DNA from: Candidatus Doudnabacteria bacterium
GTDB lineage: Bacteria; Patescibacteriota; Doudnabacteria; UBA920
Assembly: GCA_003151625.1 (NCBI GenBank)
Contig: PLYC01000007.1
Span: forward strand, 2,929 to 66,928
Length of the DNA stretch: 64,000 nucleotides
Direction of reading: 5' to 3'
Shown one piece after another: positions 2,965 to 58,722 of this stretch (position 1 is the first letter of the stretch; each line of letters opens with the position of its first letter). The notes beneath the pieces were generated by a model, which saw nothing but the letters and a program-made list of their open reading frames with translations, did not search any database and had not been told where the DNA came from. A program made the position numbers and the translations under genes.

Positions 2965-3140
2965 CCTTATAGGGTCTGTTGCCGAATGTCATTTTTGCCC
3001 AAAATTTGCTTTTTGGGCAAACCGGCCAAAAAAATTTCTCCGCTTACCTTTCAGGTAAACATCAAAATTTGTTTTTACCGCTTTGCCTCAAACATCAAAT
3101 TTTGCATCAAAAAGCCCATTCGGCAACAGACCCTTATACT
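2965..3140. repeat. MITE-like palindromic element with 17-bp perfect terminal inverted repeats
   Basis: gggtctgttgccgaatg at 2972-2988 and cattcggcaacagaccc at 3117-3133. Internal hairpins tttgcccaaaatttgctttttgggcaaa and ttacctttcaggtaa. The predicted 64-aa ORF 2950..3144 spans exactly this palindrome and is judged non-coding. Confidence 0.5.
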
Positions 3141-3375
3141 CTGACTTAACCATAACAAATTTTTCAACCGCTACTTCCTTCTGGCTATGTCGGTAATTTT
3201 GCTTATGGTTGCCATAGGTGGCTACTATATATAGAGTGGCAGTACCCGCCAAACCCGCCCCGTAAACACCCCGCTCCTTAAATCTCGCGACGGCGTAAAA
3301 TTACACTAATCCCAGATGGGCACCATCAAGGGGGACTATGAATAATTTTGAAATATTTATTGAACGATTGAATGA

Positions 3376-15706: not shown

Positions 15707-15787
15707 AGCCGCTGATTGGTCGCTGATTAGTACGCTGAAGGTCGTAGCCCATCGATTTATCGGCCTGAAGAATTAAATGTAAGAATT

Positions 15788-24424: not shown

Positions 24425-24829
24425 ATGTCCAATAATTACATTGAAAATCGCCCTTGGGGTAACTACGAAATTTTAAAGGAGTTTGCCGTTAATGAGCCGG
24501 GTTTTAAAGATGTATGTGTAAAGATAATGACTATTAAGCCACGCCAAAGGGTTTCTTATCAGGTTCATAAACAGCGTAATGAGCATTGGTTTTTTGTGCA
24601 GGGCGAAGGTAAGGTTATTTTAAACGATAAAGAAATTCCGGTTAGGGTCGGAAATTTTGTGGATATTAAGATTGGTGATAAACATCGCGTAATTAACACT
24701 GGCAATCAAGTAGATTTAATTTTTATTGAATCCCAAACCGGACACTACGACGAAGACGACATAGAAAGGTTCGAAGATGATTACGGAGGCAGCCGGTCTA
24801 CTCCTTACCGTGGAAAATTTAATTCTTAA
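24425..24829 (+). CDS. Cupin-domain protein (type II mannose-6-phosphate isomerase C-terminal-like)
   Basis: NRPWGNYEIL...KIMTIKPRQRVSYQVHKQRNEHWFFVQGEG cupin motifs. tgttataat -10 box ends 7 nt before ATG, suggesting a leaderless start. The ORF-track start at 24389 is judged spurious. Confidence 0.55.
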   Translation: MSNNYIENRPWGNYEILKEFAVNEPGFKDVCVKIMTIKPRQRVSYQVHKQRNEHWFFVQGEGKVILNDKEIPVRVGNFVDIKIGDKHRVINTGNQVDLIFIESQTGHYDEDDIERFEDDYGGSRSTPYRGKFNS

Positions 24830-24894
24830 AAACCCTTCAATTGAAGGGTTTTTAATATCTCGATATCTTAGTTTTTTACAATATCTTTGAGCCG

Positions 24895-26022
24895 TTATTT
24901 CACCGGTGAAGGAACGTTAAGTCTCATTTCTTTTTGAACGCTGGGCATTTTGTCTTCGGGAAATTCAAAGTTTCCCCAGCCGTATTTGTCCGGGTCAAAA
25001 CCCTGGCCGCAGGTGGTTTCAATCAAAGCAGTGCAAATTTGGTAAGGGTCTAAGTTTGCGGCCGGGCGGCGGTCTTCAAGGTAGCCGCGGCCTTTGTTGG
25101 CGGTTTCCATTGGGATACGTATGCTGGCGCCGCGGTCGGAAACGCCGTAGCGAAAATCTTTGTAACTGCAGGTTTCGTGCTTGCCGGTTAAGCGCTTATC
25201 GTTATCGGCGCCGTAAACGCGAATATGCTGTTTGGCAAAGCGTCCAAGTTTTTCACAGGCTTGCTTAATAACTTCTAATCCTCCGTGTTCGCGCATAGCC
25301 CTTGTGGAATAGTTGGTATGTCCGCCGGCGCCGTTCCAGTCACCATTCATTGGTTTGGGGTCGAGTTTGGCGTAAGCGTTATATTCTTCACCCAGGCGGT
25401 AAAGTAACCATCGTGTAAGCCAAAGTTGGTCACCGACTTCCAAGGGACCCAAAGGGCCAACCTGGAACTCCCACTGTGCCGGCATAACCTCGGCGTTAAT
25501 GCCGGAAATCATCAATCCTGCCTCTAGGCAGGCTTTCAGGTGAGCTTCGATTAATGGGCGCCCATGGACTTCGTCGTAGCCCACGCCGCAGTAATAGCGC
25601 CCCTGCGGGGAAGGATAACCGCCGGTCGGCCAGCCAAACGGCCAGTCGTTTTTTCCGTAAAGCGTATACTCCTGTTCAATGCCAAACCATGGGTCTTGGT
25701 CTTTAAATTTTTCCGCGACTTGGCTTAAAACGCGGCGGGTGTTGGTTACGTGCGGCGTGCCATCGGCGTTAAGAACTTCGCACATTACCAAAAGGTTATC
25801 GCCTTTGCTAATTGGGTCGGGGATGTAGTAAACCGGTTTTAGCTGGCAGTCGGAAAAATGGCCTTCGGCCTGTTCGGTGGAACTGCCGTCAAATCCCCAC
25901 ATAGGAACGTCTTCCAATTTTCTTACCGGCCCGTTTATTATTTTAGTTTTGCTTCTTAGTTTAGCCGTGGGCTTTCTGCCGTCCAGCCAAATGTACTCTG
26001 CCATAACTTTGCCGTTTGTCAT
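24895..26022 (-). CDS. glnII: Glutamine synthetase, type II (eukaryote-like GSII)
   Basis: 375 aa. AEYIWLDG N-terminus. Conserved GS catalytic blocks GPYYCGVG and NGAGGHTN. Confidence 0.85.
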   Translation of the reverse strand: MTNGKVMAEYIWLDGRKPTAKLRSKTKIINGPVRKLEDVPMWGFDGSSTEQAEGHFSDCQLKPVYYIPDPISKGDNLLVMCEVLNADGTPHVTNTRRVLSQVAEKFKDQDPWFGIEQEYTLYGKNDWPFGWPTGGYPSPQGRYYCGVGYDEVHGRPLIEAHLKACLEAGLMISGINAEVMPAQWEFQVGPLGPLEVGDQLWLTRWLLYRLGEEYNAYAKLDPKPMNGDWNGAGGHTNYSTRAMREHGGLEVIKQACEKLGRFAKQHIRVYGADNDKRLTGKHETCSYKDFRYGVSDRGASIRIPMETANKGRGYLEDRRPAANLDPYQICTALIETTCGQGFDPDKYGWGNFEFPEDKMPSVQKEMRLNVPSPVK

Positions 26023-26047
26023 TTTTCTTTCCTTCCCCCTCCATTAA

Positions 26048-26141
26048 TCGCTGATATTTACGCTGATATGTCGCTGATTCTGAAGTTTAGATTCAGCGTT
26101 GTATCAGCGGTGGTGTTAAAAGCAGCGTTCGTTCAGCGTTT
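26048..26141. repeat. CGCTGA-box palindromic element, copy 1 (within glnII 5' leader)
   Basis: CGCTGAtatttaCGCTGAtatgtCGCTGA ... then TCAGCG x4 at approx 10-11-nt spacing. Second copy at 58621-58722 shares an identical 18-mer cgctgatatgtcgctgat. Confidence 0.55.
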
Positions 26142-26149
26142 GCAAATAA

Positions 26150-26260
26150 ATAAAACACCTTTTTTGACGGAATTCTCCCGTAAGAAAATTGGTGTTTTTT
26201 TTAACTCTAGTATTTAGTTTTACTTAATTATATTATCAGATTAAATTATTATGTCAAGCC
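26150..26260 (-). promoter_or_regulatory. glnII promoter plus leader hairpin/U-tract (attenuator or sRNA terminator candidate)
   Basis: Minus strand: TTGACA-17nt-TGaTAATAT-like -10. Then AAAAAACACC-[31-nt loop with ACGG/CCGU stem]-GGUGUUUU AUUUAUUUG, approx 130 nt upstream of the ATG. Confidence 0.4.
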
Positions 26261-26437
26261 TTAAAATTGGGTTATTTTGTCGAATTTTATAAGTTTTCCA
26301 CAAAGTAAGGGAAAGGGGGCGGCGCAAACCTGATGCTTGTTTGCGTGCCCCCGGGTTGCTGTTTTATTGGGTGCGGTGTGCACGGGGCACCCGTAAAACG
26401 TTGCCGTTGACGGAAGCGCGAACGCTTCGCTGTATGA

Positions 26438-26635
26438 TTAACTGAGAATTCCCGAGTCTCCGCGCGCTCTTTTCGGCGGCTCGATGTGAACGAATGAGCG
26501 AATACGATACCCGCTGATGGGAGTAACCACGTCATTGTCGGGCAGACATCCGATCGTGCGCATAAACGCAGCTAGCCCGTCTTCCGAAGGCGTGCTATCG
26601 GTATATACGCCTCCAAGGACGGGGCCATCACTCAT
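26438..26635 (-). CDS. Candidate small protein B (66 aa, MSDGPVLGGVYTDSTPSEDGLAAFMRTIGCLPDNDVV...)
   Basis: AGGAAGGA RBS 5 nt upstream of ATG. Translationally coupled to ORF A. Confidence 0.3.
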   Translation of the reverse strand: MSDGPVLGGVYTDSTPSEDGLAAFMRTIGCLPDNDVVTPISGYRIRSFVHIEPPKRARGDSGILS

Positions 26636-26816
26636 GGGTTCCTTCCTCTTGCGGGCTGAGCGCGCCAAGGTCTGGCACCGGCGCTGCCTGCACGTGGGGC
26701 GGCGGCAGGTACGGACGCATTCTGGTTCCTGCTACAAATTCGCGTTCGAGCGCGTCCGACACATCGCTTCCGGGAAGAATCCCGGAGTAATTATTCGCGG
26801 TCACGTTTTCCTCCAT
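26633..26816 (-). CDS. Candidate small protein A (62 aa) in the GC-rich island. Its stop overlaps the next start as ATGA.
   Basis: MEENVTANNYSGILPGSDVSDALEREFVAG... Coding status uncertain in a GC-rich background. Confidence 0.25.
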
Positions 26817-26983
26817 ATCTGGCTTACAGCCAGATTGTTTGAATTATGCAGCCTGGCAGCTGCTTGTGCCTATTGTACGCCAAAGCCAAACTTTTGGTCA
26901 AGTTAAAAAACTGACCCAAAGTGCCTTAGATCAGCGTTTAATCCCTGCCTGCCGCAGGCAGGAGCGTAAATATCTACGTAAAA

Positions 26984-28021
26984 TCAGCGGCTATCAAAAT
27001 GCGTCAACTTTTTGAACTCCGCAAATCGTTTGTTTATATCGCGGGCGGTTATTTCCTGCAGTCGTTTTGTACCTAGCTTTTCCACGGAAAAAGAGGCCAA
27101 AACCGAACCCGCCACGCAGGCGCGTTTGAGGTTTTCCCAGGAAATATTATCTGCCTTTGCCAAATAGCCAAACATTCCGCCGGCAAAGCTGTCGCCCGCG
27201 CCGGTTGGGTCGGTTACGTCCTCCAGGGGAAATCCCGGAAGATGGAAAATTTCAACCCCCCCAAGCCCCCTCTTTTGAAAAGAGGGAGAGCTTCTGAACA
27301 TCAATAATCCGTATTCGCCTTGCTTTATAATCAGCGTCGCATTTTTACCCATCATCCCCATTATATGCTTTGCCCCCTTTACCAAATTGTGTTCGCCGCT
27401 AAGCTGGCGCGCTTCGGAATCGTTTATAATAAAAATGTTAATCTTTTTTAAAACTTCAGCCAACTGTTTTGGCGCTTTTTTTATCCACAAATTCATAGTA
27501 TCCAGCCCGACAAATTTTGGCTTTTTAATTTGAGCCAGCACTTCCAATTGTAGGGAAGGGTGGATATTGCCCAAAAAAACATACGGCGATTGTTTATGTG
27601 CCGCCGATAACTTTGGCTTGAATTGTTCAAATACACCCAGTTTTGTAAATAAAGTGGTACGGTTGTTTAAATCAAAACTGTATTTGCCGCCCCAGGCAAA
27701 AGTTTGGCCGGCAGATTGTTCCAGATCCGATAAATCTATATTTTTGCCGGATAGAATCACCCGATACTTATTAGTAAAATCTTTTCCCACAGCCCCAACC
27801 AAGCTAGGTCTCGAAAAATTACTCGCAGCCAAACAAAAATAGCTCCCGCTACCGCCCAAAGTCTTGTTTACTTTCCCAAACGGCGTTTCTATGCTGTCAA
27901 AAGCCACACTGCCGACAATTAACAAATTTGAAGTTGACCCCGTTAAAGGTCCAGTGCTTTTAGGCACTGGCAATCGCCTTTGGCGATTGACTTTTAACGG
28001 GGTTGACGATTTTTTATTCAT
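26984..28021 (-). CDS. PfkB-family carbohydrate/nucleoside kinase (ribokinase-like)
   Basis: DPTGAGDSFAGG PfkB signature 2 and N-terminal GG region. The first approx 28 codons overlap a triple-hairpin palindrome (27940-28018), so an alternative TTG start at LLIVGS is possible. An internal palindrome cccctcttttgaaaagaggg lies at 27250-27292. Confidence 0.7.
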   Translation of the reverse strand: MNKKSSTPLKVNRQRRLPVPKSTGPLTGSTSNLLIVGSVAFDSIETPFGKVNKTLGGSGSYFCLAASNFSRPSLVGAVGKDFTNKYRVILSGKNIDLSDLEQSAGQTFAWGGKYSFDLNNRTTLFTKLGVFEQFKPKLSAAHKQSPYVFLGNIHPSLQLEVLAQIKKPKFVGLDTMNLWIKKAPKQLAEVLKKINIFIINDSEARQLSGEHNLVKGAKHIMGMMGKNATLIIKQGEYGLLMFRSSPSFQKRGLGGVEIFHLPGFPLEDVTDPTGAGDSFAGGMFGYLAKADNISWENLKRACVAGSVLASFSVEKLGTKRLQEITARDINKRFAEFKKLTHFDSR

Positions 28022-58567: not shown

Positions 58568-58620
58568 AAAGTTGAAAGTTGAAAAACCCCGGTCGATTCC
58601 GGGGTTTTGCTTATAAAACC

Positions 58621-58722
58621 GCTGATATGTCGCTGATGGGCACGCTAATAAAACGCTGAGCGGTTAATGACAGCTTCAGCGTTTATTCAGCGGTTGCAGT
58701 TATTCAGCGTTATTTCAGCGGT
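58621..58722. repeat. CGCTGA-box palindromic element, copy 2
   Basis: CGCTGAtatgtCGCTGAtgggcaCGCTaataaaaCGCTGA ... TTCAGCG x4. Lies between convergent genes. Confidence 0.55.

Follow-up and report, generated by a model that had tools for sequence, protein, structure and literature searches.

A conserved promoter, hairpin and U-tract in the leaders of glutamine synthetase genes from Doudnabacteria-like CPR bacteria, possibly a factor-controlled attenuator

Why does a hairpin resembling an intrinsic terminator lie between the promoter and the start codon of a nitrogen-assimilation gene? The question is raised by a 64,000-nt stretch of DNA from a Candidatus Doudnabacteria bacterium, here called the window. 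An initial annotation of this DNA placed a sigma70-like promoter, a terminator-like hairpin and CGCTGA-box repeats ahead of a glutamine synthetase (GS) gene on the minus strand, and suggested attenuation or riboswitch control, or a short sRNA. The downstream gene does encode a GS, and specifically a GlnII, as the protein scores 518.2 bits with the NCBIfam equivalog NF041605 against a cut-off of 500. The features of the leader, in the order of transcription, and the two related repeat arrays elsewhere in the window are as follows.

26302-26294, minus strand: DnaA-box-like 9-mer TGTGGAAAA (reverse complement of TTTTCCACA), 36 nt upstream of the -35 hexamer
26257-26252, minus strand: -35 hexamer TTGACA, found by promoter scan, with a 16-nt spacer to the -10 element
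26238-26230, minus strand: extended -10 element TGaTAATAT, found by promoter scan (10/12 positions matched plus the TG)
26223-26203, minus strand: A-rich 5' tail GUAAAACUAAAUACUAGAGUU (alignment A1), predicted to be unpaired, without a start codon
26202-26191, minus strand: 5' arm of the outer helix P1, A8 followed by CACC, columns invariant in 17 aligned leaders
26190-26160, minus strand: 31-nt insert between the arms, folding into an inner hairpin ACGGGA/UUCCGU (26181-26167) or alternatively UUUUCU/GGAGAA, with a Shine-Dalgarno-like GGGAG
26159-26143, minus strand: 3' arm of P1, GGUG, followed by the U-rich tract UUUUAUUUAUUUG; GG.G and the following Us are invariant or nearly so in A1
26138-26049, minus strand: CGCTGA box array with three exact boxes, one CGCTGC variant and, after these, three inverted TCAGCG boxes, phased at 11-12 nt
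26042-26027, minus strand: purine-rich Shine-Dalgarno region GGAGGGGGAAGGAAAG, with GGGGGAGAAAGAAAA-like sequence before the ATG kept in orthologues
26022-24895, minus strand: glnII, type II glutamine synthetase of 375 aa (Pfam Gln-synt_N and Gln-synt_C; NCBIfam)
15710-15738, plus strand: CGCTGA array, three direct copies between two plus-strand genes
58620-58720: CGCTGA array of +++---- order between convergent genes, just after a terminator

The promoter is of the sigma70 type (TTGACA-16-TG-n-TAATAT). The scan match alone is at chance level, with four promoter-like sites found versus 3.4 expected in 3 kb; the window promoter is credible because it is conserved in all orthologous leaders. TTGAC(A) is found at the equivalent relative position in 16 of the 17 aligned orthologous leaders and also in the locus L106, and TGnTAAnAT-like -10 elements are kept as well. 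Transcription probably starts at about G26223, 7 nt past the -10 element, with the A-rich tail as the 5' end of the RNA. The tail consensus, GUAAAAnUAAAUAUAAAGUU, is conserved in part. The A run that follows is eight nucleotides long (26202-26195) and begins 27 nt past the -10 element, about 20 nt past the putative start, and not about 15 nt after the promoter as first proposed. The hairpin in the window has the form AAAAAACACC-N31-GGTGTTTT (26200-26152, minus strand). This pattern occurs once in the window versus none expected from shuffles, and the fold of the entire leader is more stable than those of shuffled versions (z = -3.66). The ATG at 26022 is 129 nt away from position 26152, in agreement with the earlier estimate of about 130 nt.

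To determine how widely this arrangement is conserved, we compared the leaders of related GS genes. Promoter and hairpin together were found in 18 instances: the window, L001-L008, L064, L071, L083, L094, L097, L103, L104, L105, and L106. The eight loci L001-L008 come from close genomes, all with the arrangement; L064, L071, and L083 came from a metagenome motif scan, which also gave L090, a sequence identical to L002; and L094, L097, L103, L104, and L105 came from contigs that carry GS relatives. Fifteen of the 17 leaders besides the window precede GlnII and two precede a type-I GlnA, and the hosts are Doudnabacteria-like CPR bacteria. The orthologues of the window GlnII are 78-89% identical to it and are encoded in Doudnabacteria-like MAGs. 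The closest of these GS genes (80-89% identity) come from MAGs labelled Candidatus Doudnabacteria, with some of the records labelled Saccharibacteria or Patescibacteria, which places the window in a CPR bacterium. All 18 instances sit upstream of a GS ORF, at a spacing that varies from about 8 to 280 nt.

Conservation within the leader is sharply confined. In the 17-sequence alignment A1, the A8, the CACC, the GG.G and the Us that follow are invariant or nearly so, and the promoter-internal spacer, the hairpin insert and the region down to the Shine-Dalgarno sequence have diverged beyond alignment. The insert between the P1 arms spans 6-39 nt across the leaders. RNAalifold found the outer helix P1 (AAAAACACC/GGUGUUUUU) to be without variation, with an uncompensated mismatch in two leaders, and P1 gains no covariation support because it never varies. 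The inner helix P2 (UGC-NNN...NNN-GCA) shows compensatory changes at three of its four pairs across orthologues. P2 is not essential, since it is missing from L104, L106, and L008. Loss of structure in orthologous leaders, named beforehand as the outcome that would speak against a regulatory role, was therefore not what we observed.

Two of the copies stand before a different type of GS. The gene behind the L064 leader encodes a type-I GlnA, and L106 encodes the nearest relative of that GlnA (69% identity). L106 has a minimal leader, AAAACAAAACACC-N9-GGUGUGUUUUGUUUUU, behind a promoter of similar kind; the C that interrupts its A run can pair with the G that interrupts its U run. With two copies preceding type-I GlnA, the element, judged from sequence, tracks GS function rather than one gene lineage. 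The GlnA-type gene of L106 (2501-3894) was split by gene calling into successive ORFs of 329 aa and 135-146 aa, each matching Gln-synt_C; a frameshift, a pseudogene or an assembly error could be the reason.

The metagenome scan for the motif was blind to gene context and returned 52 loci from 241 M records. True copies were found at GS genes alone, and the other 48 of the 52 loci were unrelated 3' terminators that share the stem by chance. L046 and L043 were rejected as copies: their 45-49 bits come only from the invariant columns that the search pattern imposes. With a covariance model derived from A1 we found one copy in the 64-kb window at 75.9 bits, with the next matches, ordinary 3' terminators, at 33 bits or below. 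Because both the covariance model and the context-blind scan find true copies only at GS genes, the element appears GS-specific as far as these data go, which for other genomes cover short flanks. The A8-CACC motif is absent from the GS leaders L010, L030, and L095 of more distant CPR bacteria (Magasanikbacteria and others), which carry an unrelated hairpin and U-run between the putative promoter and the ATG (L010, about 2935-2975; L030, about 3140-3190; L095, about 1925-1960). These unrelated elements suggest that leader termination may be a recurrent theme for CPR GS genes. L095 also has a ACACCCUA...CGAACAA stretch recalling the motif.

Could the hairpin act as a terminator? The initial annotation had called it intrinsic-terminator-like, and both the hairpin and its U-tract are real and conserved, but a standard terminator scan makes no call on it because the loop is 31 nt. 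The U-tract is that of a Rho-independent terminator. GGUG is followed by 3-8 consecutive Us in 17 leaders (in L106, U4 and then U5 follow GGUGUG), and the U-tract scores 4.5 in the window and 4.1-5.1 in most leaders versus 3.6-4.9 for bona fide 3' terminators of the window. The sense d-score is below zero (-2 to -30) in all correctly delimited leaders except L105, a count that excludes L094, L097, and L103, where the 3' arm was mis-delimited. It falls below threshold because the stem is weak, having a 4-bp G+C core and a large interior. The predicted energy of the whole hairpin, A:U pairs included, is -9 to -18 kcal/mol in most leaders, and the minimal hairpin of L104 has -6.2 kcal/mol. On these predictions, a good U-tract behind a weak stem is the profile of a conditional terminator.

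GS transcription must pass this hairpin, since the U-tract lies only 8-44 nt from the Shine-Dalgarno sequence in L104, L106, and L097 and leaves no room for a second promoter. In the window, the promoter scan found no promoter-like site between the hairpin and the ATG. Before the 3' arm has been transcribed, A8CACC is predicted to be free of pairing in almost every leader, which argues against an RNA antiterminator; no alternative fold competing for the 5' arm was predicted. A candidate pairing between the 5' tail and the U-tract (inverted repeat I6) was rejected because it scores no better than shuffles of matched composition (mean z = +0.42). That the 5' arm of P2 can pair with the real Shine-Dalgarno sequence was also set aside, as a trivial outcome of P2 being a helix of the SD/anti-SD kind.

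We searched the 3-kb region and the 261-nt leader alone with the Rfam models glnA, Gln-II, and T-box, the check proposed with the initial annotation, and found no match even at E<=10. Among 20 related loci no riboswitch, T-box or leader family was detected at the gathering threshold. The glutamine riboswitch and T-box readings are thus not supported. The leader is a two-helix stem-loop, P1 plus P2, with its invariant positions in P1, and it lacks the three-stem junction, E-loop, pseudoknot and core nucleotides of the glutamine riboswitches. As for a T-box, only about 20 nt of leader lie upstream of the terminator. Neither does the leader resemble a trp/his-type attenuator, as the 5' tail has no start codon and there is no 2:3-type competing fold. 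A leader peptide starting at the GUG within the GGUG 3' arm was rejected: the peptides are not conserved, and the SD-like GGGAG is 14-16 nt away. ANTAR-type dual hexaloops are absent from the leader. The invariant A8CACC, predicted to be unpaired and overlapping the 5' arm of the terminator, fits the kind of site expected for protein-dependent attenuation.

A second conserved element lies upstream of the promoter. The 9-mer TGTGGAAAA fits the DnaA-box consensus TTWTNCACA; a search for the DnaA-box-like 9-mer gave three matches in the window. TGTGGAWAA (reverse complement TTWTCCACA) has 15 matches in 109 kb of CPR GS loci versus 1.7 expected, and it is found just upstream of the GS promoter in 12 of the 21 CPR GS loci examined, including L010 and L030, which lack the hairpin. 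The loci with the 9-mer at the GS promoter (the window, L001-L003, L005-L008, L010, L030, L097, L104, L105, and L106) belong to several CPR lineages. Perfect TTATCCACA is found in L003, L006, L008, L064, L097, L104, L105, L106, and L030. The distance from the 9-mer to the -35 element is 6-50 nt, and in the GlnA locus L106 the box abuts the -35 element. From its sequence and placement the 9-mer looks like a candidate site for a transcription factor, or for DnaA, of the same regulon.

The attenuation first suggested for this gene remains the most economical reading of the conserved promoter, hairpin and U-tract, though not by the riboswitch or T-box route. We tentatively favour, at a little under an even chance, a GS-specific leader attenuator controlled by a trans-acting factor that binds the exposed A-rich 5' arm. 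The strong sigma70 promoter, with its consensus -35, extended -10 and A/T-rich upstream region, would start the RNA at about G26223. The first 20 nt or so would be A-rich and unstructured and lead into the invariant A8-CACC; the variable insert, of 6-39 nt, and then GGUG and the U-rich tract would complete the terminator-like hairpin. For the GS gene to be transcribed, RNA polymerase would have to read through this marginal hairpin. A factor, either a protein or perhaps an RNA, could bind the exposed 5' arm and block the hairpin, giving antitermination; alternatively, it could recognise the folded stem and promote termination. The decision most likely lies with a trans-acting factor, because no competing RNA fold is predicted. 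Taken together, the strength of the promoter, the marginal terminator in the path of the polymerase, the exposed invariant 5' arm, the dispensable interior and the lack of a competing fold agree best with factor-dependent attenuation. The choice between read-through and termination would presumably follow nitrogen status. Termination would yield an RNA of about 75-80 nt. The short sRNA first proposed may be a by-product of termination.

Other explanations have to be weighed against this attenuator. The element could be an unregulated bidirectional terminator or insulator that mainly halts antisense (plus-strand) transcription into the GS promoter, with the leak in the sense direction setting a fixed expression level. 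Predictions give the antisense hairpin the higher stability in 17 of the 18 leaders (-210 versus -159 kcal/mol summed for the sense strand), and the invariant A8 is a perfect U8 on the other strand, where d-scores are mostly positive (+2.6 to +21) and near those of real window terminators (+12 to +23). With this greater predicted stability and U8, the element looks at least as good a terminator for antisense transcription. The ordinary terminators of the genome likewise consist of an A-run, a stem and a T-run, and many GS loci have a convergent downstream gene. Part of the strand asymmetry is, however, expected from the A/C-rich composition of the sense strand, and the scan found no plus-strand promoter-like site within 24500-27500. 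Nor would an insulator need the invariant CACC/GGUG core or the fixed position between promoter and ORF, and one would not expect it to accompany two GS types exclusively. We regard it as a doubtful explanation, but one with a real share of the probability. That it is instead a repressor roadblock, a DNA operator formed by the inverted repeat AAAACACC/GGTGTTTT downstream of the start, is very improbable. Invariant half-sites are typical of protein-DNA recognition, and the DnaA-box-like 9-mer shows selection at the DNA level on the promoter region, but the half-site spacing of 6-39 bp is beyond a dimeric DNA binder and in practice excludes an operator, and the flanking A/U runs and the covarying inner hairpin point to RNA.

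An RNA that senses a metabolite directly is also unlikely. Here a nitrogen metabolite, for example glutamine, would bind the P1/P2 junction and stabilise the weak hairpin, turning GS off. The weak stem and good U-tract would suit ligand-stabilised termination, for which the HMP-PP riboswitch, with its aptamer within a terminator, is a precedent, and the P2 covariation at three of four pairs fits, as do the semi-conserved CUA, GCA, and A-rich strands of the junction and the constant length of its 3' strand (12-14 nt). P2 and the junction are nevertheless absent from L104, L106, and L008 while the invariant arms persist, so that the sole covarying hairpin is dispensable. The invariant nucleotides are in a helix rather than in loops, the junction sequence is variable, and neither an Rfam riboswitch match nor an alternative antiterminator fold was found. 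We give similarly little credence to an independent sRNA gene: its product, about 75-80 nt long, would have a conserved A-rich seed at the 5' end and a terminator of its own, and GS would be expressed by incidental read-through. The layout is classical, as a strong promoter leads into a conserved, single-stranded 5' end (GUAAAACUAAAUA) and the RNA closes with a hairpin and U-run. The element is, however, followed directly in every case by a GS gene in the same orientation and without a separate promoter, the 5' tail is conserved only in part, and no target was identified; an sRNA is moreover compatible with the attenuator rather than exclusive of it.

A broader proposal, which we hold to be rather improbable, is that the A8-CACC...GGUG-U leader and the DnaA-box-like 9-mer together form a nitrogen-control circuit specific to CPR/Patescibacteria, in which an RNA-binding antiterminator, or a factor or ligand that stabilises the terminator, gates whichever GS type is present. 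If true, this would be the first regulatory RNA element and nitrogen regulon signal described in the CPR/Patescibacteria radiation.

Control of GS is known to involve NtrC/sigma54, GlnR/TnrA, NtcA, adenylylation, and glutamine riboswitches on genes for inactivating factors. To our knowledge, a terminator in the leader of the GS gene itself is part of none of these. The nearest parallels to the attenuator are the protein-mediated attenuation leaders of Firmicutes, which include trp/TRAP, hut/HutP, pyr/PyrR, bgl-sac/LicT-SacY, and the ANTAR systems. Like the GS leader, they have a strong constitutive promoter, a metabolic gene whose 5' leader contains an intrinsic terminator, no leader peptide, and a conserved RNA sequence over the 5' arm of the terminator, here a putative regulator site. 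Unlike them, the GS leader has no (G/U)AG triplet arrays, RAT hairpin or dual hexaloop ANTAR hairpins, and the gene neighbourhoods yielded no cognate protein. In several of these systems the protein chooses between two RNA folds, whereas no alternative fold is predicted for the GS leader, and both the target gene GS and the CPR host are new.

Glutamine riboswitches control genes for GS-inactivating factors in cyanobacteria at the translational level. These RNAs (glnA RNA, RF01739; Downstream-peptide/Gln-II, RF01704) resemble the CPR leader in being cis-acting and tied to the control of GS activity and to nitrogen status. They differ from it in having the three-stem junction, E-loop and pseudoknot, with no covariance-model match at E<=10 to the CPR leader, and in not acting on the GS gene through a terminator. 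The HMP-PP (thiS) riboswitch is likewise small and combines sensing and the terminator hairpin in a single piece of RNA, but the GS leader does not match it in sequence or structure (Rfam), and the interior of the GS hairpin is dispensable in three leaders. Post-transcriptional control of GS is known from the glnA antisense RNA of Clostridium and from the glnII 5' UTR of Rhizobium with GstI. Both act through the 5' region of the mRNA, beyond the action of NtrC, GlnR or NtcA at the promoter, as we propose here. They differ in acting on translation or mRNA stability via an antisense RNA or a nearby small protein, and neither an antisense promoter nor a conserved small neighbouring gene was found at the CPR GS loci.

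We found no published work relevant to a GS leader element in CPR/Patescibacteria. A leader terminator on a biosynthetic gene is a familiar device; one that is specific to GS, in CPR bacteria, with an A8-CACC/GGUG-U signature and belonging to no known family, is not. Gene regulation in CPR/Patescibacteria is almost unexplored, and a compact element of about 60-90 nt, sharply conserved and common to two GS types, offers a concrete handle. It could be used as RNA bait for the factor (GUAAAACUAAAUACUAGAGUUAAAAAAAACACC), as an in vitro transcription template and, through its covariance model, in searches for the regulon. It also opens the question of how CPR organisms with reduced genomes sense nitrogen.

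The gene neighbourhoods examined contain no candidate RNA-binding regulator next to GS in any locus. No neighbouring gene is consistently linked to GS except a cupin gene in three loci; as in the window, it is the convergent neighbour of GS in L094 and L103. Between glnII and the cupin gene of the window lies a perfect bidirectional terminator, AAAAACCCTTCAATTGAAGGGTTTTT (24823-24857). On the other side, between a pfkB-family kinase gene and the glnII promoter, about 700 nt (26300-26980) are rich in G+C and have a terminator-like hairpin, GGGGGCACGCAAAC...GTTTGCGCCGCCCCC, at their end. Orthologous loci have G+C-rich DNA and a terminator at the equivalent position as well. The 700-nt stretch was ruled out as a conserved ncRNA or regulator gene, as it has no nucleotide or translated similarity to the orthologous loci and no Pfam or Rfam match.

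The CGCTGA-box repeats noted in the glnII leader are also real, but they are not a regulatory feature of glnII: the spacer they occupy is unconserved in orthologues, where its length ranges from 8 to 278 nt, and arrays are present at two other intergenic sites. The window has three intergenic arrays of 3-7 boxes versus 0.005 expected, as in a dispersed palindromic repeat family with several intergenic copies. The array in the leader folds as a long interrupted hairpin, and the copies at about 26061 and about 58620 have an 18-nt identity, CGCTGATATGTCGCTGAT. A mir-50 match at 26057-26114 is spurious and corresponds to the CGCTGA palindrome. Several orthologous leaders have arrays of similar architecture made of other 6-mers, including ACGAAT (L094), GGAACTACGGAA (L001), and ACTAAAT (L002, L006, and L007). 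From the sequences, the best description of the CGCTGA arrays is a dispersed palindromic repeat that evolves fast and has come to lie in the leader as a passenger, outside the switch; an effect on mRNA stability or translation is conjecture. Like REP/BIME- or MITE-like repeats, they are short, intergenic, palindromic and multi-copy, with a species-specific sequence. They differ in consisting of 6-nt boxes phased at 11-12 nt in +++--- order, with no associated transposase seen.

Other repeats were observed near GS genes. In L064 (about 900-1130) the conserved Shine-Dalgarno region and the glnA ATG are separated by an insert, some 220 nt long, with 19-nt inverted repeats at its ends (GGGACTATTGCCAAATATGC ... 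GATATTTGGCAATAGTCCC). By its sequence the insert looks like a MITE-like element, and a terminus resembling its ends, GACATTTGGCAACAGGCCC, is found at the start of L103 (1-30). Tandem arrays lie directly upstream of the GS promoters of L102 (AAGATTGA, about seven copies, 1-55) and L103 (ATATCTAA-like repeats, 35-75). Short phased repeats seem to be common in such intergenic regions.
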